64,000 bases of DNA from Burkholderiales bacterium (GTDB lineage: Bacteria; Pseudomonadota; Gammaproteobacteria; Burkholderiales; JBBRTU01), in NCBI GenBank assembly GCA_038244115.1, contig JBBRTU010000001.1, positions 150,632 to 214,631 of the forward strand, read 5' to 3'. A program made the translations under genes and the position numbers. Positions 2,719 through 64,000 of this stretch are shown piece by piece. Every line of letters starts with the position of its first letter. Position 1 is the first letter of the stretch. Below the pieces are notes generated by a model that was given only the letters and a program-made list of their open reading frames with translations, ran no database searches and had not been told where the DNA came from.

Positions 2719-2976
2719 TCAAGCCGCTGCGGGAATAATCTCCCGCTCAATGCGTTTGGCATTCTCGATTTCCGCTACCCGCAAATCATACGCAGCCTGC
2801 AAACTGAGCCATGAGCGCGCATCGCCGCCAAAATAACGCGCCAGCCGCATGGCAGTGTCCGCCGAAATACCCCGCCGTTCGCGCACGATATCGTTGATGC
2901 GCGGTGCCGGAACATTCAGCGCCTTCAGCGGAACAAGGGGTCGCAGCGGAACAAGGGGTCGCGTCTTGACATGGCA
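2719..2976 (-). pseudogene. higA: HigA-family (XRE HTH) antitoxin remnant lacking its N-terminus and start codon
   Basis: The minus frame reads ...RPLVPLRPLVPLKALNVPAPRINDIVRERRGISADTAMRLARYFGGDARSWLSLQAAYDLRVAEIENAKRIEREIIPAAA*. There is no ATG/GTG/TTG between the upstream in-frame TGA (2988-2986) and the HTH. The ~25 N-terminal residues usual for HigA are absent. Confidence 0.65.
2926..2961. repeat. Perfect 18-bp tandem duplication (CAGCGGAACAAGGGGTCG x2)
   Basis: Read directly at 2926-2943 and 2944-2961. It encodes the duplicated RPLVPL at the truncated 5' end of the higA remnant. Confidence 0.9.
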
Positions 2977-3053
2977 TATTCCGTATCAGAAAAATCGTGA
3001 TGGAGAAGAGGCGAGTTGCATGTCAAGATGTGACCCCTTTGTGGTACGGCTTG

Positions 3054-18241: not shown

Positions 18242-18258
18242 TTTTATGAAACATAACT

Positions 18259-18350
18259 GGACGCAGATGAACGCAGATATGCGCAGATAAAAACAAGAAG
18301 TCGATTGATGGAATTTAAGTATCTGCGTTAATCGGCTTTTATCTGCGTCC
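18259..18350. repeat. GCAGATAAAA-type palindromic repeat element
   Basis: Left arm GGACGCAGATGAACGCAGATATGCGCAGATAAAAAC and right arm GTATCTGCGTTAATCGGCTTTTATCTGCGTCC. A related copy sits at 38980-39103 in opposite orientation. Confidence 0.7.
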
Positions 18351-18397
18351 AATAGCCATTCTTATGAATGCGATAACAATTTTTCTGGAGTACAAAA

Positions 18398-20029: not shown

Positions 20030-21718
20030 ATGCCTCTCCAAATAAATATCGGTACTGCCACCGCACTCGGTTCGCGTGAGCGCAACGAGGATTTCTGTGG
20101 TGCTGTCACGCCCGAAGGCAGCGAGCTTGCCAGCAAGGGGGCGCTGCTAGCCATCTCCGATGGCGTGGGCGGCAGCGGGGGCGGACGTGAGGCGGCAGAA
20201 GCGGCGGTACGCGGCGTTCTGGCCGACTACTATGCCACGCCGGAAACGTGGGAAATTCCTCACGCGCTGGAAAAAATAATTTCCTCCATCAATAGCTGGT
20301 TACATGCACAGTCAGGCATGCAACGTGTGTACGCTGGTATGGCAGCGACGTTATCCGTGCTGGTGTTGCGCGGTCAGCGCTATGTGTTGGCGCATGTGGG
20401 GGATAGCCGCATCTATCGGCTGCGCGGGGAAAGTTTTACGCAACTGACCGCCGACCATGTTTGGGACAGGCCGGAAATGTCTCATGTGTTGAAGCGCGCG
20501 GTGGGGTTGGATGCGCACCTGGCGGTGGATTATTCGGATGGCCAATTAGCCGTCGGCGACGTGTTTTTGCTGGCGACAGATGGCGTGTGGGAACCGCTCG
20601 GACAACGCACCCTGCACGAAACACTGGTACTGCATCAAGACCCGCAATGTGCCGCAGATGCCCTGGTGAAACAAGCCATCACGCAGGGCGGGCAGGATAA
20701 CGCGACCGCTGTTGTGGTGTGCGTCGAGCAATTAGCAGACGAGGCGATGCAGGATCTGCTGGTTGAGGGACGCGATCTGCCGGTGCCGCCGCGCCTCAAA
20801 ATCGGCCAGCAATTGGATGGCTTCGAAGTGCTCGCGCAGATACATGAATCCCGCGCCACCCTACTATACAAAGTGCGCGATCCAGCCAACAGCCAGACGC
20901 TGGTATTGAAAACCCTGCCGCCCGCGCTCAAGGATGACGCGGAGGCCATGTCTGCCCTGCTGGCTGAAGAGTGGCTCGCCAAGCGGGTGGTGTCGCATTA
21001 CTTTCCGCAGGTTGTGCCGTTTGCGCCAGGCCAGCGTAGTTGTCTGTACTACGCCATGACTTGGCATGAGGGTGAAACACTGCAACAGAAACTCGATACC
21101 GCATATCGCTTTCCGGTTACGGAAACTGCCCAGCTCGGCATTCGTCTCATCAAGGGACTCTCCGCGCTGCATCAGCTGAACGTAGTACACCGCGACATCA
21201 AGCCCGCCAACCTGCATCTGGGTAGCGATAGCAAACTGCGCATACTCGACTTGGGTGTTGCCCTCAATCCGCTCGCCGATCAAGCCAGCGGCAACCCTGG
21301 TACGCCAAGCTACATGGCGCCTGAATTGTTTCTGAATGAGCAAGCCTCCACGCAGAGCGACCTGTATGCCGCTGGCGTAACCTTGTACCACTTGCTGACG
21401 CGTAAGTATCCCTACGGCGAAATCGAACCGTTCCAGCATCCACGTTTTGGTGAACCTGTCCCACCCACGCGCTACCGCCCCGACGTGCCTCAATGGCTGG
21501 AAAATATTCTGTTCAAGGCAATCGCACGTGACAAAAATATCCGCTTCGAAACTGCTGAAGAATTTTTGCTGGCACTGGAACGCGGTGAACAACATTCGCT
21601 CCTGCCACCCCGCCCCACGCCGCTGGCTGAACGCGACCCCTTGACGCAGTGGCAAAGTGTCGCTGTCATTTCATTATTGGTAAACCTTCTTCTGTTGTAT
21701 CTATTTTTCGTCAGCTAG
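20030..21718 (+). CDS. Bifunctional PP2C phosphatase / Ser-Thr protein kinase with C-terminal TM anchor
   Basis: 562 aa. The N-terminal PP2C motifs are RERNEDF and DGVGG...DNATAVVV. The C-terminal Hanks kinase motifs are HRDIKPANL and GTPSYMAPE. The last ~25 aa are hydrophobic. Confidence 0.9.
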   Translation: MPLQINIGTATALGSRERNEDFCGAVTPEGSELASKGALLAISDGVGGSGGGREAAEAAVRGVLADYYATPETWEIPHALEKIISSINSWLHAQSGMQRVYAGMAATLSVLVLRGQRYVLAHVGDSRIYRLRGESFTQLTADHVWDRPEMSHVLKRAVGLDAHLAVDYSDGQLAVGDVFLLATDGVWEPLGQRTLHETLVLHQDPQCAADALVKQAITQGGQDNATAVVVCVEQLADEAMQDLLVEGRDLPVPPRLKIGQQLDGFEVLAQIHESRATLLYKVRDPANSQTLVLKTLPPALKDDAEAMSALLAEEWLAKRVVSHYFPQVVPFAPGQRSCLYYAMTWHEGETLQQKLDTAYRFPVTETAQLGIRLIKGLSALHQLNVVHRDIKPANLHLGSDSKLRILDLGVALNPLADQASGNPGTPSYMAPELFLNEQASTQSDLYAAGVTLYHLLTRKYPYGEIEPFQHPRFGEPVPPTRYRPDVPQWLENILFKAIARDKNIRFETAEEFLLALERGEQHSLLPPRPTPLAERDPLTQWQSVAVISLLVNLLLLYLFFVS

Positions 21719-21841
21719 TGCGGGTAACCGTCGTCCTTACCGCGACTCGCAGTTATCAACGAGCTGGCCGCTTGGTTTGAGGGGTTGCCTTTCCACACGC
21801 TTCATGTAAACTAAGCTCTGTTAGTTCACTATAAGGCAGCC

Positions 21842-22090
21842 ATGCTTACCATCAACATCCACGATGCCAAAACCCAGCTTTCCAAGCTGGTTGAACAAGC
21901 CGCTAACGGTGAGTCCTTCATCATCGCCAAAGCAGGCAAGCCAATGGTCAAGGTTATCGCGCTGGAACCCGCAGAAGCAGGCACGGCCAACCGCTTGGGC
22001 TTCATGGCCGGGGAATTTTCCGTGCCGGACGATTTCGACCAGATGGGTAGCGGAGAGATTGAAAGCCTGTTTGCAGGGCGCAAGGCTTGA
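21842..22090 (+). CDS. Phd/YefM-family antitoxin
   Basis: 82 aa. The opening MLTINIHDAKTQLSKLVEQAANGESFIIAKAGKP is typical of the family. Overlaps the PIN toxin gene by 4 bp. Confidence 0.85.
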   Translation: MLTINIHDAKTQLSKLVEQAANGESFIIAKAGKPMVKVIALEPAEAGTANRLGFMAGEFSVPDDFDQMGSGEIESLFAGRKA

Positions 22091-22473
22091 ACCTCCTGCT
22101 CGACACCCACCTGCTGCTGTGGGCGGCGAGCGAGCCGAAGCGCCTGTCGGCCAAGGCGCGCACCATGTTGCTCGATCCCGCCAATCACCTCATATTCAGC
22201 ACCGCCAGTCTGTGGGAAGTCAGCATCAAAAACGGACTTGATCGTTCGGACTTCAATGTTGATCCGCGCCGACTGTGGCGCATGCTGCTGGTCAATGGCT
22301 ATCGCGAACTACCCATCACCAGCGAGCACACCGTCGCGGTGAACGAGCTGCCTAACTTGCACAAAGACCCATTCGACCGCATCCTCGTGGCGCAAGCACG
22401 CGTGGAAGGATTGACGCTGCTGACGGTAGACAAGGCTGTGGCGAAATACGGCGATGGCGTGAAGAAGGTATGA
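22087..22473 (+). CDS. vapC: VapC-family PIN-domain toxin
   Basis: 128 aa with the acidic PIN residues (LLDTH..., SLWEV, DPFDR). Confidence 0.88.
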   Translation: MNLLLDTHLLLWAASEPKRLSAKARTMLLDPANHLIFSTASLWEVSIKNGLDRSDFNVDPRRLWRMLLVNGYRELPITSEHTVAVNELPNLHKDPFDRILVAQARVEGLTLLTVDKAVAKYGDGVKKV

Positions 22474-22502
22474 GTATGGATGGCGCGGGACATGAGTTAA
22501 TG

Positions 22503-22546
22503 CAAGACCTGACCCCGTGGACACAAGACCTGTGACCCCGTGGACA
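22503..22546. repeat. Two tandem ~21-nt units (minus-strand reading TGTCCACGGGGTCA(C)AGGTCTTG) forming the 3' exon of the intron
   Basis: Read directly. A third copy of the unit forms the 5' exon at 24393-24411. Confidence 0.85.
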
Positions 22547-22586
22547 GGTGAGTAGGCCCAAGGAATCTCACCTTGAGCCGCTCGCA

Positions 22587-22620
22587 GAACCGTACGTGAC
22601 ACTCTCGCGTCATACGGCTC
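22587..22620 (-). ncRNA. Group II intron domain V
   Basis: GAGCCGTATGACGCGAGAGTGTCACGTACGGTTC is a 34-nt hairpin with the AGC triad and a GAGA tetraloop, matching the domain V consensus. Confidence 0.85.
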
Positions 22621-22623
22621 CCG

Positions 22624-23877
22624 TCATCCAACCTTATGTCCTCCAGCCTGCCAATGGATAAACAACCGAGGGTAAACATCCTTCATCTTGGCTAGCCATT
22701 CCGCGCTGCGCTGATGACGCTGCGACAGCGTTTTATATTTCCGCCTGGCCCATTTCTCAAGCTTTCGATCGATATATTGACCGAGCTCGTCCATCGCCTT
22801 TTTGTAGAATGCCCCATAGTAGTTCCACCATCCGCGTACCGTCGGATTGCATTGCTGTGCCAGTTCGGCAAGCTTCGCCGATGTCCGATGCTGTAGCTTC
22901 CACCCCCACACTGTCTGCCGCATCCGCTTCAGCGCATCCTTGCTCACGCCGGGCAGGAAGTTGGTAAACACCCTGCCATGTTTGCTCAGTGCCCGCCTTG
23001 GCCGAAACGTAAAACCAAGGAAGGTAAATTGCACTTGCGGGTAGGCTTGTCGGCGGCTGCCGTCTTTGCAATATACGATCTTCGATTTCTCCGGATGCAT
23101 CGTCAATCCGCATTCCTCCAGCCGTGCTGCGATGGATTGCATCACGTCTTGCGCTTGCTTCAAACTGCGGCAGTGAACCACCGCATCATCGGCATAACGG
23201 GCAAAGGGACACTGCGGGTAGGTGCGCTGCATCCAGCAGTCGAACGCATAATGCATGAACAGGTTCATCAAGATCGGACTGACCACTCCCCCTTGCGGGG
23301 TGCCGCGTTCCCGCAGCAATCGAGTGCCGTCTTTTGCCTCGAACGGCGCAGTCAGCCACCGTTCGATATACAGCAAAATCCAGTCTTCGCTGATGTGGCT
23401 GCGTACCGCTTTCATCAGGAGCGCGTGATCGATGTTGTCGAAAGCGCCCTTGATGTCAAATTCAACCACCCAGTCGTATCGCCAGCACCGTTCTCTGGTG
23501 ACGGCGACCGCCTGTTTCGCCGATTTCCCCGGCCGATATCCGTATGAGTCCGGATGAAACATCGGGTCGAGTTTCGGTTCGATGAGAAGTTTGACTACGG
23601 TCTGCGCAATCCGATCCGAAACAGTGGGTATCCCCAGCTTTCTGAAGCCGCCCGTGGCCTTCGGAATTTCCACTTGCTTGACCGGCGGCGGGATGTACGA
23701 TCCCGAAGACAGCCGGTTCCATAGCTTGTACAAATTCTTCGACAGGTTCTGCTCAAACATGATGATGGTTTCATCATCAATACCGGCAGCACCGCGGTTG
23801 GCTTTGACTTGCTGGTAGGCTTCCCACACTGCGCGTTTGGCAATGCTATAAGGTTTTGCTGGTTTCACGCCGCTCAT
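22624..23877 (-). CDS. Group II intron reverse transcriptase/maturase (no endonuclease domain)
   Basis: 417 aa with RT blocks including the YADD box (ARYADDAVVHC) and a maturase X domain (WWNYYG...). Confidence 0.95.
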   Translation of the reverse strand: MSGVKPAKPYSIAKRAVWEAYQQVKANRGAAGIDDETIIMFEQNLSKNLYKLWNRLSSGSYIPPPVKQVEIPKATGGFRKLGIPTVSDRIAQTVVKLLIEPKLDPMFHPDSYGYRPGKSAKQAVAVTRERCWRYDWVVEFDIKGAFDNIDHALLMKAVRSHISEDWILLYIERWLTAPFEAKDGTRLLRERGTPQGGVVSPILMNLFMHYAFDCWMQRTYPQCPFARYADDAVVHCRSLKQAQDVMQSIAARLEECGLTMHPEKSKIVYCKDGSRRQAYPQVQFTFLGFTFRPRRALSKHGRVFTNFLPGVSKDALKRMRQTVWGWKLQHRTSAKLAELAQQCNPTVRGWWNYYGAFYKKAMDELGQYIDRKLEKWARRKYKTLSQRHQRSAEWLAKMKDVYPRLFIHWQAGGHKVG

Positions 23878-24392
23878 CCCCGCAGGTTGGCGACCTTCGT
23901 CAGCCGGTTAACGCTGCCCCTTCGCTCCACCGTCATTACAACGGCTTCATCACTACTACGGGCAGCTCCGCCCCTCATTCCGGCATCGGTATTCTTCCTT
24001 ATGGTGTCTGCCATTTGTCATTTCCCTTACCATCCGAAACGAGGTTCTCACGTTCCGTACCAAAGCCTGTACTGAGCTCATGCCGCCTAAACACCGACTG
24101 CCGACGGGTCCGTAAACAGGTGTCGTCCCGACTGATCCCGGCGTTGTCTAGCTACCCCGGTTTTGGCAGTGCTTTAGGTCTAACGATGCGTCATCGGTCG
24201 GTTTGCTTTCGCTCATCTTCTCAGTACGTACCTGACATCTTGACGATGCCTTTTCCTCAGTCGCTCACGACCGCGCCTTTTGGACGCAGCCGCACTGGGC
24301 GGTTTGAAACCTGCTCCTGCAAGCCGGTTTCGGGAGGCCATCTCCCATCTTTGATACAGCTACGCAGGCTTGCGCCTACTTTCGTGACACAC

Positions 24393-24411
24393 CAAGACCT
24401 GACCCCGTGGA
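24393..24411. repeat. 5'-exon copy of the 21-nt unit (minus strand ATCCACGGGGTCAGGTCTTG)
   Basis: Read directly; it abuts the intron 5' GTGTG. Confidence 0.85.
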
Positions 24412-24721
24412 TTTTGTAAAAATATCGCGATGGAGTCGGTTCAGTATCGGAAACTGCGTGATAGCTGATTTCGGCCGTCGAGTGCCAAGAGCGGACCGAT
24501 AGGAGCATTGCCGATAACGGCCACTCAAAATGCCATGAGAATTGCTGCCAAAGAAAATCGGAGGCACAATCAACTCTTGCGAGCAGTGACGGGCAAGCTA
24601 TCCGGATAAAGACTTCAACTGACATGGGGAGCAATTTTATGGACATTTATCGGGTTTATGCCGACATCGGGAAATTGAACCGACATCAGTGTCGACTAAT
24701 TCAAAGGTGCCCTACGAACCC

Positions 24722-24844
24722 ATGAGTAACGATCCGCTCACCGAAAAGCAAGAGTACGAAGCTCGGCTCCAGCGCCGCTTGAAGATACTTAAGCAACAGT
24801 TTGACGCTGGCAAGGTGCGCATCGCCGAAGGGCTTCAGCATTGA
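24722..24844 (+). CDS. 40-aa ORF, or the frameshifted N-terminus of the following gene
   Basis: Encodes MSNDPLTEKQEYEARLQRRLKILKQQFDAGKVRIAEGLQH*. It overlaps the TTG-initiated 534-aa ORF in another frame. Confidence 0.3.
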   Translation: MSNDPLTEKQEYEARLQRRLKILKQQFDAGKVRIAEGLQH

Positions 24845-26405
24845 TAGTCTAAAGCGAGTTCGATGCGCACATGACGGAAGCATCGACCTTGACACCGTCG
24901 ACGGATTGGTGAGATCAATGGCATTGGCGGTCGAGGCCATGCATGATCGTGAGGAGATGAAAAAGTCCGCTTCCCTTGCGGAGATACAAACAATCTATTT
25001 CGAGTTTTTAGAGAAAAATTTCGGCCAATTCCACGAAATCATGGTTGATCGTAGATTGTCGCCACATGATGCCGGAGTTGCGCTTTCACGGACTCCGACT
25101 ACTATCGCTGAACTGATCGGGAACTTGCCAGGCTTTCTCTCGACAATCGATGAATTCTGGTCTTCAACTGGTCCTATCGCCATTGCTCATGTTGAGGATA
25201 TGCAAGACTCTCTCAAGGGTATATTTGGCGGTGACTTATTCCCGTCAGCCAACGAGAACATCGCTTCGAAGTGCGGCCTGTATACTGACACGCTCGTTCT
25301 GCCCGATCCCTATCTGCGATCAAAGCACATCTTCGAACGCGCTACTGATGAGAAAAAAGCTTACTATCTGATTAAGCACGCTCTGAATCTGCTTCAGTAC
25401 AAGGAGCTTGCTTGCGCCGACGTCACCCCTCCAATTGTCGTTGTGCTCCCAGATACCTCCGTCATCGAGGAAGGAGAACGAGATTTCTTCTATCGCCTTA
25501 GCCAGAACGATGCCCTGATTCACACATCACGAGTCTTTGGTCGCAAATTCGAATCCTTCGACGAGTTAATGGAATTCTGTGAACAACTAGACACCATCGA
25601 ACGCGCAGCTGCGGAGATCAAAGACCATGATCGCGTCCTTTTCGATACCGAATGGAAGGGAACAGTATCTGAACAGCTTGAGCGTGCCACAAAAGACTCG
25701 GTCTATTCAAATCTTCTAGGGACTACGAATCCTGGGCTAATTTTGGCATCCCAAGCAATTGGCCGAATGAGCACCAGCAATGAGCTTCTGGTTAAGGCTC
25801 GACGCCTGCGCGGCACTCCAATCATTGACGCCCCCACATCTTGGCAGTATTTGGTGTGGAAGCTTGAATACGACGCAGGGCATACTGAGGAGATCGAGGG
25901 GTTGAAGGATTTACACGTCGTACGGGGCCTGCAAACACTCGCGGAGAATGACATGCAATGGCTCGGCAGAATCCCATCCGAGGCACTTCTTGAAGTTCGA
26001 AAGACTGGGGCGCTTGGCGAGGTTCGAGCTATTCTCACCAAAGGGGTCGAAGAGTTAGCAATGGTCAATCCAACCAATTTCCATCGCACGAGCGACATTG
26101 TATTTGACAATATCCATGCGGCGTTCTCAGAGCATAGAAAGAACATTGATGCTCTCGTGGCGAAGAAATGGAAATTCGCCGGTAGCGATCTTGGGTCATG
26201 GTTAGTTGTTGGCTCGCTGGCGGTGACAGCTGCATCGACCGGTACGCCCGTATGGGGTCTTGCTGCAATAGCAGCAGACCAAGCTCTTCGCGCTCCCAAG
26301 TTACGAGATATCCCACAATCAATTAAGGACCTGGCAACTGAAACAAGCAAACTTAAGCGTTCTCCAGTGGGAATGCTCTTCAGGATGAGCAAAGGTGCGG
26401 CATAA
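24801..26405 (+). CDS. Large hypothetical protein with C-terminal hydrophobic segment(s); no family recognised
   Basis: 534 aa from the TTG start in the ORF track. ATG 24919 (preceded by GGTGAG) is an alternative start. The C-terminus has TM-like LGSWLVVGSLAVTAASTGTPVWGLAAIAA. No P-loop or nuclease motif was seen. AT-richer than neighbouring core genes in hand counts. Confidence 0.6.
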   Translation: MTLARCASPKGFSIDSLKRVRCAHDGSIDLDTVDGLVRSMALAVEAMHDREEMKKSASLAEIQTIYFEFLEKNFGQFHEIMVDRRLSPHDAGVALSRTPTTIAELIGNLPGFLSTIDEFWSSTGPIAIAHVEDMQDSLKGIFGGDLFPSANENIASKCGLYTDTLVLPDPYLRSKHIFERATDEKKAYYLIKHALNLLQYKELACADVTPPIVVVLPDTSVIEEGERDFFYRLSQNDALIHTSRVFGRKFESFDELMEFCEQLDTIERAAAEIKDHDRVLFDTEWKGTVSEQLERATKDSVYSNLLGTTNPGLILASQAIGRMSTSNELLVKARRLRGTPIIDAPTSWQYLVWKLEYDAGHTEEIEGLKDLHVVRGLQTLAENDMQWLGRIPSEALLEVRKTGALGEVRAILTKGVEELAMVNPTNFHRTSDIVFDNIHAAFSEHRKNIDALVAKKWKFAGSDLGSWLVVGSLAVTAASTGTPVWGLAAIAADQALRAPKLRDIPQSIKDLATETSKLKRSPVGMLFRMSKGAA

Positions 26406-26411
26406 CCTCTC

Positions 26412-27191
26412 ATGGACAAGGAAATACTGATCAACGATTTTGCAACTCGCTCTTTCCGCGAAGTTGCCGACTATGACTACATTGCTGCACGAATGGCATA
26501 TCGTGCGAAATTGGTCCCGCAGTTCCTTTGGTCCAGCCTTCAGTCAATCGAGAAGTATCTCAAATGTATTCTTCTGCTCAATCGCATCAAGGCGCGTTCG
26601 GTCGGTCATGACCTCAGCACTGCTCTCGATCTATTGAAGAAGCATGCCCCTTTCGAGTTGCGTTTGCAGAAGCCAAGTCTCGACTTAATAGCGCACCTTG
26701 ATACCTACGGACGCTTTCGATATCTAGAAACTCCATTCCACGTCATGGGATTGGAAATCATGCAACTTGACATGGCTGTCTGGGACATAAGGCGATACTG
26801 CCAAGTGCTTGACTATGAAATCAGTCTGCCTAACGGTGAGAAGAAACAGATGCTTGATATTGAAATTCGAACTATTGTGCATAGTGAAACCAAGCCGCCG
26901 CAGTCGTATTCGCTCATCGGCGGCGCTCTTGAAAAAATCATTGCTGACAAGACGCACCCTGCAAGGGAGCCTTTACTTTGGCAGAACTTGTTTTTTGGTC
27001 AGCGCGCTCGAAAGCGCGTTCGTCTTCGGCGCTACATGCACACTACGAACTCTCCGCTTTCCTTGCATCCAGAAATTCTGGAAGACGTTCTACAGTTTGT
27101 CTTCCTACCTAAGGATGTAATCAATGCATACCGCAGAGAACTAACCCTGCGCTCAACTAGTTCTGTGCGAAAAGCCGCGCCAGCCGGTTAA
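26412..27191 (+). CDS. HEPN-like helical protein with unknown C-terminal half
   Basis: 259 aa starting 7 nt after the upstream stop. The N-terminal pattern ADYDYIAARMAYRAKL...SLQSIEKYLKCILLLNRIKARSVGHDLSTALDLL resembles HEPN (EK-x-LK ... HDL). Assigned by eye only. Confidence 0.5.
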   Translation: MDKEILINDFATRSFREVADYDYIAARMAYRAKLVPQFLWSSLQSIEKYLKCILLLNRIKARSVGHDLSTALDLLKKHAPFELRLQKPSLDLIAHLDTYGRFRYLETPFHVMGLEIMQLDMAVWDIRRYCQVLDYEISLPNGEKKQMLDIEIRTIVHSETKPPQSYSLIGGALEKIIADKTHPAREPLLWQNLFFGQRARKRVRLRRYMHTTNSPLSLHPEILEDVLQFVFLPKDVINAYRRELTLRSTSSVRKAAPAG

Positions 27192-27567
27192 TTCTCACGT
27201 TGAACGGCTCTTTTCGGAAGCCTTAAGGTCGGTTCAGTGTCCAGACTGTGTAAAAACGCCAATTTGGATCTATGCCGATTAAATATCTTTTCTTATAAAA
27301 CGCGCTACATTTAATTTTCTTGGTATCGGGAATGGTCAAGGCAACCCTGAAATCGAATGGATTTTGAGTTTTTACACAACCTGTGTCGATAGCGAAAATT
27401 CCTGTTTCCCCAAAGCTGCCGTTCCTAAGAGGCGGCAAGTCACCGAACTCGCAATCGATTTTTGATGATTATAATTTGCTGGAATTCGAGCGGGACGCAG
27501 GACATTTGTTACAGGTTTTATTTCCTCTATCACCACGGCAAAAAAATTTTGTGAATTCAATGAAATC

Positions 27568-28871: not shown

Positions 28872-28940
28872 ACCACGGGGATCACGGGGGACACGGGGTA
28901 AAGAATCTGCATTTCCCCGTGCTCCCCGTGTGCCCCGTGG
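28872..28940. repeat. CCACGGGG-type compound palindrome inside the nrtB-nrtD gap
   Basis: CCACGGGG-ATCACGGGG-GACACGGGG, then a 20-nt loop, then CCCCGTG-CTCCCCGTG-TGCCCCGTGG. A second copy lies at 57112-57229. Confidence 0.85.
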
Positions 28941-57092: not shown

Positions 57093-57111
57093 CCCCCAAA
57101 ACCGTATTTGT

Positions 57112-57229
57112 ACCACGGGGGACACGGGGATCACTGGGAAATCAGGGCTGTGAAGGAAATGAAGGAACTCGACAGGCCATACTTTTGCAACAACTTGAAT
57201 TACCCCGTGTTCCCCGTGCGCCCCGTGGT
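57112..57229. repeat. CCACGGGG-type compound palindrome (second copy, larger loop)
   Basis: CCACGGGG-GACACGGGG-ATCACTGGG ... CCCCGTG-TTCCCCGTG-CGCCCCGTGG, located between convergent genes. Confidence 0.85.
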
Positions 57230-57261
57230 TAAACTGTTTTTTAAAAATAATTCAAAGAGCA

Positions 57262-63619: not shown

Positions 63620-63649
63620 AAAAAAAAACCCCGGCATGCCGGGGTTTTT
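63620..63649. terminator. Bidirectional intrinsic terminator
   Basis: A9-CCCCGGCATGCCGGGG-T5. It lies downstream of cspA on the minus strand but upstream of the 128-aa ORF, which follows cspA on that strand. Confidence 0.85.
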
Positions 63650-63666
63650 ATAGTTCGCTGTGAAGC

Positions 63667-63870
63667 TTACCCTGCTTGGATGTTCGAGGCTTGTTTGCCT
63701 TTAGGTCCAGCCGTTACTTCGAAGGTTACGCGCTGATTTTCTTGCAGCGTTTTAAAACCGCCAGCCTGGATTGCCGAGAAGTGCGCGAACAAATCTTCGC
63801 CGCCATCATCAGGGGTAATAAATCCAAAACCTTTAGCGTCGTTAAACCATTTTACAATACCTGTTGCCAT
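63667..63870 (-). CDS. cspA: Cold-shock protein (CspA family)
   Basis: 67 aa beginning [34 protein letters not shown], with RNP1/RNP2 motifs. Confidence 0.96.
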
Positions 63871-64000
63871 TGTGTTTTTCCTAAATTCAAAAAATTATTT
63901 GGGCGAGAATACCCGTGGTCTATCGAATCAAGAAAAAACAGGGACAACTTAAAGTACCGCAATTAGAAGCTTGAATTCTTTAGAACTCCGTGAGTATACC

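Follow-up and report, generated by a model that had tools for sequence, protein, structure and literature searches.

A complete group II intron, probably of class D, between units of a REP-like tandem repeat in a betaproteobacterium

Insertion sequence (IS) elements that target repetitive extragenic palindromic (REP) sequences are well known. ISPpu9, ISPpu10, ISPa11 and IS1397 are of this kind, and an association between group II introns and REPs has already been noted for two of nine copies in P. putida KT2440 (PMC1525189). Group II introns of class D (IIB3) lack an endonuclease domain (PMC3552965). RmInt1 of Sinorhizobium meliloti belongs to this class, and E.c.I9, E.c.I2 and E.c.I3 of E. 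coli are listed as ORF (open reading frame) class D by Leclercq and Cordaux (PMC3522654, Table S2). The target of RmInt1 is laid out as intron-binding site (IBS) 2 at exon positions -13 to -9, IBS1, and IBS3 at +1, and the intron prefers the strand that templates lagging-strand synthesis (PMC4075523). Here we describe an intron that resembles class D introns and lies in a repeat of REP type. It is found in a 64,000-nucleotide stretch of a Burkholderiales bacterium (contig JBBRTU010000001.1, positions 150,632 to 214,631; hereafter the window, in whose numbering positions are given). We favor, with a probability of about 0.6, an account in which a class D-like intron inserted once, by partial pairing, into a neutral, pre-existing REP-like repeat within a strain-variable island.

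The intron is real, complete and apparently intact. Its main parts are as follows.

22547 to 24392, minus strand: complete group II intron of 1846 nt, 5' GUGUGUCACG ... CCUACUCACC 3', defined by Rfam matches and by ends conserved in 80 relatives
24230 to 24346, minus strand: domain I segment, RF01999 (group-II-D1D4-2), 106 bits in an Rfam scan at the gathering threshold; the hairpin with the hexamer at 24237–24242 falls within it
22624 to 23877, minus strand: reverse transcriptase (RT)/maturase ORF, 417 aa, YADD present, RVT_1 3.5e-44 and GIIM 2.8e-15 (Pfam)
22547 to 22622, minus strand: domain V/VI match, RF00029, 58.6 bits (gathering score 40)
22587 to 22620, minus strand: domain V, 34 nt with the AGC triad, from the RF00029 alignment
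22547 to 22586, minus strand: domain VI and 3' tail, from the RF00029 structure line, with the 3' end taken from the exon junctions of relatives

The Rfam matches to domain I and domains V/VI, the GUGUG 5' end at 24392 (which conforms to the group II rule GUGYG) and the intact RT/maturase bear out an earlier note on this DNA, which had called the intron complete and had placed domain V at 22620–22587, exactly where the RF00029 alignment puts it. Across the 5' junction the sequence reads GGGGTCAGGTCTTG/GTGTGTCACG (slashes mark junctions throughout). A candidate bulged branch-point A is located at 22553, 7 nt before the intron 3' end, where the RF00029 structure line leaves the UA of CCUACUCACC unpaired. 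The intron is probably still functional, judged by its sequence.

The 3' end was fixed by comparison with related introns. A metagenome scan with the RT gave 80 loci encoding RTs 73–83% identical to that of the window; together with six loci of the closest relatives, these make 86. The introns at the 80 loci start with GTGTGTCACGAA and finish with ...CTAC TC(A/G)(C/A)C. When exon junctions were reconstructed in the IS5, IS66-TnpB and DDE_5 transposase hosts, the Pfam domains were continuous only with an intron ending ...CUCACC/. Removal of the intron then rejoins the motifs W/YFGMKAHVGVD, DE/TYIKV, ILYW/DRDGF and QEVG/LGHYEGR, and single Pfam alignments (DDE_Tnp_1, TnpB_IS66 and DDE_5) span the rejoined junctions. 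Because the transposase domains are restored only by a 3' cut after the final C, the window intron extends from 24392 to 22547. The earlier note had cut after CAC and had reasoned that a 3' splice site elsewhere could make the two flanks non-equivalent. The true site does lie elsewhere, one base further 3', but the effect is the opposite: the 3' exon begins TGTCCACGGGG and the unit boundaries become exact (GGTCTTG/TGTCC).

The intron-encoded protein matches the NCBIfam model for group II intron RT/maturases, TIGR04416, at 427 bits (cutoff 300). Pfam and NCBIfam searches identify RVT_1 and GIIM but no HNH/En endonuclease domain, and the protein stops about 25 residues past GIIM; the lack of this domain had been read correctly from the letters alone. 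In size and in the absence of a D/En domain the protein matches class D RT/maturases (about 417–440 aa). Over 407 aa it shares 51% identity with the RT of E.c.I9, the intron in the Rhs region of E. coli ATCC 8739, and the GUGUG 5' end is common to both introns. Sampled Sinorhizobium intron RTs are 32–35% identical to the window RT, and the two loci checked hold introns other than RmInt1. The family shares with RmInt1 the arrangement of IBS2 at -13 to -9, IBS1 at -7 to -1 and a single-nucleotide IBS3 at +1. Most relatives lie in IS transposase genes, as do E.c.I3 (IS679) and RmInt1 (ISRm2011-2). Unlike these class D systems, the window copy occupies a non-coding REP-like tandem repeat outside any transposase gene, and its exon-binding sites (EBSs) 1 and 3 fit the site imperfectly. 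We conclude that it is probably an endonuclease-less intron of IIB type, class D-like as are RmInt1 and E.c.I9.

Class C (IIC) introns, which insert after terminator hairpins, attC sites or REP palindromes and of which the P. putida KT2440 intron is an example, offer another parallel. Like them, the window intron is found in repeated, non-coding, structure-prone DNA, is antisense to the neighboring genes and encodes no endonuclease domain. IIC introns, however, have no EBS2 and recognize a 5' hairpin, whereas no hairpin precedes the site in the window. Targeting of class C or attC type is ruled out because EBS2 is present and covaries with the exon, and the 5' exon unit contains no hairpin.

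The intron separates the first of three short repeat units from the other two.

24393 to 24413, minus strand: unit A, AATCCACGGGGTCAGGTCTTG, the end of the 5' exon, carrying IBS2 and IBS1
22524 to 22546, minus strand: unit B, TGTCCACGGGGTCACAGGTCTTG, 23 nt at the start of the 3' exon, in which a CA insertion puts IBS2 out of register
22503 to 22523, minus strand: unit C, TGTCCACGGGGTCAGGTCTTG, followed by CATTAAC; unoccupied, and fitting the EBSs at 10 of 13 positions like the occupied site
2920 to 3045, no strand assigned: related REPIN-like inverted pair, left arm GGAACAAGGGGTCGC twice and then ...GTCTTGACATG, right arm CATGTCAAGATGTGACCCC

The 19-nt sequence TCCACGGGGTCAGGTCTTG occurs exactly at 24393–24411 and 22503–22521, with the third copy, interrupted by CA, at 22524–22546; shuffled sequences gave none. 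The sequence CCACGGGG occurs nine times in the window against 1.6 expected. Before insertion the order is reconstructed as A, B, C, CATTAAC, and the intron sits precisely between A and B. This upholds the original description of an intron between copies of a short tandem unit (21–23 nt) in non-coding DNA. The window, with its three units at one locus and one related inverted pair (the left arm of which is duplicated), contains no REP-associated tyrosine transposase (RAYT) gene.

The EBSs were mapped on an alignment of 62 distinct introns (first 520 nt of each), in which mutual information (MI) was calculated between intron positions and each intron's own exons.

24145 to 24151, minus strand: EBS1, CUAGACA, intron positions 242 to 248, covarying with exon positions -1 to -7 (MI 0.63–1.35 bits; 84–97% paired)
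24176 to 24180, minus strand: EBS2, GACCU, in a loop at intron positions 213–217, covarying with exon positions -9 to -13 (62 introns)
24089, minus strand: EBS3, U, intron position 304, covarying with exon position +1 (MI 0.89; 89% paired in 56 relatives)

If the ordinary reading of a chance insertion is right, the intron is of use chiefly as a clean case in which covariation reveals the exon-binding sites. The EBS–IBS complementarity looked for in the earlier note is present, at 24151–24145 and 24180–24176. The hexamer CAAGAU (24237–24242), which that note had taken for EBS1, was rejected; it belongs to a conserved hairpin, the two strands of which change in concert with one another and not with the exons of relatives.

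Pairing at the occupied site is partial. EBS2 matches IBS2 (GGGUC, -13 to -9) at five of five positions (four Watson-Crick pairs and one G.U), and EBS1 pairs with IBS1 (GGUCUUG) at five of seven, with U.U at -2 and G.A at -7. EBS3 faces a U.U mismatch at exon position +1 (T in the DNA) and so scores 0/1. Among the relatives, EBS1 is paired at 7/7 in 47 of 62 introns and EBS3 is paired in 50 of 56. Under the same rules the window holds 148 sites with at least 10 of 13 matches, and shuffled sequences about 200. The match is thus significant for one fixed position (about 0.1%), yet it is far from unique or distinctive as a cognate site. Empty sites of equal or better score are found at the end of unit C (22503, 10/13), which is only 44 nt from the occupied site, and in the REPIN-like pair at 2968 on the plus strand (11/13) and 3024 on the minus strand (10/13). 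Each unit boundary had been considered another potential homing site. This holds for the end of unit C, which equals the occupied site, but not for the B/C boundary, where IBS2 is disrupted by the CA inserted into unit B and pairs at 2/5.

The repeat itself is widespread. One genome per species was scanned (185,579 species) with the pattern TCCACGGGGTCA(N0-2)GGTCTTG, and of the 25 loci recovered about 19 carry exact 19-mers. Their hosts include Pseudoalteromonas, Hylemonella, Rhodoferax, Rubrivivax, Thermoleophilia, Acidobacteria, Elusimicrobiota and Methylomirabilales, and the idea of a local, species-specific unit was rejected on this evidence. An intron follows the unit at none of the approximately 19 exact loci, and CATT comes next at eleven. 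The 14-nt core GGGGTCAGGTCTTG is present in two to five copies within 8 kb at many loci, often as close inverted pairs. The unit is followed 40–100 nt downstream by a Y1_Tnp gene in three loci of Pseudoalteromonas and one of Methylomirabilales. The protein scores 80.2 bits on NF047646 (REP-associated tyrosine transposase; cutoff 80) and belongs to a very large family that NCBI and JGI name REP-associated or REP-mobilising transposases. An inverted copy, CAAGACCTGACCC(C), marks the 3' end of the Y1_Tnp gene in L009, L013 and Psychromonas L117; the contigs of L010 and L012 stop before the 3' flank, so that only the upstream unit is visible. We conclude that a widespread family of RAYT-like Y1 tyrosine-transposase elements has this repeat, with its core GGGGTCAGGTCTTG, as conserved end sequence. 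The earlier assignment of the unit to a REP-type family is supported, given that the core flanks RAYT-like genes in other genomes. A related inverted pair occurs in the window at 2920–3045.

The family resembles REP/REPIN-RAYT systems and Y1 elements of IS200/IS605 type in that short conserved inverted copies flank a Y1_Tnp gene, and also in the occurrence of inverted pairs, solo copies and intergenic clusters. It departs from them in other ways. Classical REPs are species-specific, whereas the 14-nt core is near-identical across distant phyla; the associated protein has a C-terminal helix-turn-helix (HTH), with many homologues on contigs of about 1 kb; and no RAYT gene lies within the 64-kb window. 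With its conservation in different phyla, its place at the ends of RAYT-like genes and its tendency to form tandem arrays, the core may be of wider interest than the intron. A literature search for GGGGTCAGGTCTTG found no paper, and a plasmid blastn search with the Pseudoalteromonas unit region returned irrelevant Priestia matches only.

Several further observations concern these elements. Genes of about 280 aa with Y1_Tnp and HTH regions and inverted cores GGGGTCAGGTCTTG are found at L009:6182-7120, L013:1630-3130, L117:421-1375, L119:1020-1529 and L010:640-770. The core is near-identical in Gammaproteobacteria, Methylomirabilota, Actinomycetota, Acidobacteriota and Elusimicrobiota, and variants next to RAYT-like genes include GGTCTTT and GTTCTCG. 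In L013 the RAYT-like stop codon falls inside the right-hand repeat. At the same Pseudoalteromonas locus (L013:1630-2230), the intact gene is preceded by four head-to-tail repeats of a segment made up of the unit, the leader and the first 100–170 nt of the RAYT-like gene, and it looks as if new element copies had inserted repeatedly at the left end of older ones. The many homologues on contigs of about 1 kb suggest IS-like multi-copy behavior. In Endozoicomonas (L118:1-1770), a RAYT-like gene has a PIN/FitA-like toxin-antitoxin pair on one side and hicB on the other, which echoes the vapBC genes beside the units in the window.

Related introns have other targets. The repeat unit forms the 5' exon at none of the 80 metagenomic loci and none of the six loci of the closest relatives. 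Targets are IS5, IS6, IS66, IS630-like, DDE_5 and IS3 genes, most insertions being in IS transposase genes, or other motifs. The RTs nearest to that of the window among those found, at 85% and 82% identity, belong to introns at other targets and with different EBS sequences; the sites of the closest relatives are after CTAGCAGCCTGTCGGAC, in an IS3-type orfA, and after ...GAAGTCAGACTGGC. The exact window RT is recorded at one locus only, on an NCBI contig of 330 kb and a Logan contig of 3.4 kb, both with phd-vapC neighbors, which argues against multiple identical copies. In viral contigs, the exon-intron junction pattern gave one chance match in coding DNA and the unit followed by CATT gave none.

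Two sets of loci among the relatives deserve separate mention. Both records of the closest relative (85% RT identity; L107:1-146 and L108:1-112) follow the 17-nt motif CTAGCAGCCTGTCGGAC, in AT-rich intergenic contexts that are otherwise unrelated and come from different metagenomes. L091 combines an IS6-type 5' exon with an intron that has the EBS1, EBS2 and 3' exon of the IS5-targeting type, and only two of seven EBS1 pairs form; the contig was probably misassembled from two related introns into a chimera.

In our preferred account, the intron would have entered by a single reverse-splicing event between two units that already existed, guided by the partial pairing described above. Okazaki fragments would have primed the reaction, as expected of endonuclease-less introns. 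The RAYT-like family, rather than the intron, would be responsible for the solo copies, inverted pairs and tandem arrays, and the array probably predates the intron because the repeat recurs in many phyla without introns. The insertion would be neutral, and would persist, because the site is non-coding, antisense to both neighboring genes and within a strain-variable island. If this reading is true, the element simply adds to the bacterial group II introns that have settled in harmless DNA. One insertion at a relaxed or ectopic target, rather than cognate homing, is the most economical account.

The island and the genes next to the intron are as follows.

21715 to 27565, no strand assigned: strain-variable segment of 5.85 kb, which carries phd-vapC, the repeat units, the intron and ORFs of 534 and 259 aa
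21842 to 22473, plus strand: phd/vapC toxin-antitoxin genes (PIN toxin), convergent with the intron; Pfam PIN in the window, PhdYeFM and PIN on the Logan contig

A sister strain (L120; 90–95% DNA identity) is colinear with the window to 21714 and again from 27566. In place of the window segment it has 2.1 kb (L120:20135-22257) with a gene for a 615-aa SMC_N/AAA_15/AAA_21 ATPase; the whole 5.85 kb is replaced there, and the sister strain thus offers no empty orthologous site. The slot lies downstream of a PP2C-kinase fusion gene and may be a defense-island hotspot. The two ORFs (24801–26405 and 26412–27191) have no Pfam, NCBIfam or PADLOC match, and no repeats were found at the edges of the island. 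The plus strand shows negative GC skew over most of the stretch (26 of 32 2-kb windows), and therefore the intron sense strand is leading-strand sequence. Its orientation fits insertion into the lagging-strand template.

Several points weigh against our reading. Among the sites in the window that match equally well, only about 4% belong to such units, which makes a landing in a unit by pairing alone somewhat unlikely; survivorship in neutral DNA could explain it. EBS2 is perfect and EBS1 is two substitutions from a 7-bp match, and the unit could be the cognate target of a recent ancestor. The insertion of the closest relative after a short intergenic motif at L107 and L108 hints that this sublineage may favor short repeats. 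The count of intron copies covers 64 kb of the host genome, and further units may hold others. Finally, assignment to class D rests on similarity to one labelled intron rather than on a phylogeny, and is probable rather than proven.

The earlier note had proposed that the intron homes into a genome-wide repeat, which would give it many neutral landing sites. On this view the intron is specialized to retrohome into the REP-like family and the present copy is a product of cognate homing. We regard this as unlikely, although some observations speak for it. The intron sits exactly at a unit end with IBS2 and IBS1 wholly inside the conserved core, EBS2 pairs completely and EBS1 falls two changes short of perfect, the core is multi-copy in many genomes and has a related pair in the window, the nearest relative likewise follows a short shared intergenic motif, and the REP-associated introns of P. 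putida provide a precedent. Against it stand the single copy, with the exact RT at one locus only; the internal U.U of EBS1 at -2 and the EBS3 mismatch, unlike most relatives; the empty sites at the unit C end, 2968 and 3024; the approximately 19 exact-unit loci among 185,579 species genomes, all unoccupied; the absence of the target from all 86 related loci; and the lack of a true match to the junction pattern in viral contigs. Homing into a genome-wide repeat is thus not borne out. The intron is like ISPpu9, ISPpu10, ISPa11 and IS1397 in being a mobile element with an extragenic repeat as a harmless landing site. Those elements, however, show 60–100% association with REPs over many copies, whereas the intron has one copy and no demonstrated preference. 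Were RAYT-repeat targeting true, a retroelement would be taking advantage of the scattered traces left by another selfish element, a single-strand DNA transposon, and the repeat could be a portable landing site across phyla.

A distinctly less probable explanation is that the intron is a decaying fossil, which homed to a perfect site and later acquired its EBS1 and EBS3 mismatches by drift in a location that is not transcribed. No promoter-like site was found upstream of the intron on its own strand, both neighboring genes run antisense to it, and the intron's EBS1 stem is shorter and weaker than in relatives (-9.2 versus -14.0 kcal/mol), all of which would be in keeping with decay. The RT ORF, on the other hand, is full length with YADD and all domains, and the 5' end, domains V and VI and EBS2 are intact. 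Three changes confined to EBSs with no other damage are an unlikely outcome of neutral decay.

Slightly more doubtful again is the idea that a class D-like sublineage is shifting from IS transposase genes to the RAYT-type end sequence as a safe haven, the window copy, in which EBS2 is perfect and EBS1 nearly so, being an intermediate. For a lineage adapting to the repeat there is nothing positive beyond this one copy, and the idea is not supported further. If such retargeting does occur, the multi-copy 14-nt core would offer ready neutral landing pads in very different hosts.

That the intron itself built the tandem array, for instance by taking 5'-exon sequence with it in retrotransposition, is hardly credible: the identical 19 nt on both sides of the intron and the variable linker bases between units would agree with it, but intron-free arrays exist in Pseudoalteromonas (L010, three units with a 23-nt period, and the nested element copies of L013) and in Thiohalocapsa L119 (about 13 units of the variant GGGGTCAGTTCTCG beside a RAYT-like gene), partial unit duplications occur in L011, L017, L022 and the window at 2920–2968, and unit B, next to the 3' splice site, is divergent rather than a fresh duplicate. 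Moreover, duplication of target sequence is not known from group II retrohoming. The suggestion that the intron generated the array is accordingly disfavored.

Compound palindromes occur elsewhere in the window. At 28872–28940 and 57112–57229, each palindrome arm consists of three CACGGGG heptamers at a 9-nt spacing (eight matches against 0.4 expected). The kinship of the unit with these palindromes, which had been put forward from a shared core, is plausible in that the L119 variant GGACACGGGGTCAG... resembles CACGGGG, but the resemblance is confined to a short motif. A relationship between the CACGGGG palindromes and the GGGGTCAG core family through the variant GGACACGGGGTCAG is suggested, not proven. 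One intergenic slot (window 18243–18386; L120:16643-16790) holds different compound palindromes in the two sister strains. The element in L120 is of CACGGGG type and 77% identical to window 57098–57243, and that in the window has three CGCAGAT repeats per arm. This difference suggests that these REPIN-like elements can move or be replaced.

The host belongs to the betaproteobacteria and is close to Sulfuricellaceae, with a NirB about 80% identical to those of Sulfurirhabdus, Sulfuricella and Sulfurimicrobium. At 63621–63992 on the minus strand of this betaproteobacterial genome, Rfam gives a cspA thermoregulator match (88.4 bits against a gathering score of 78).

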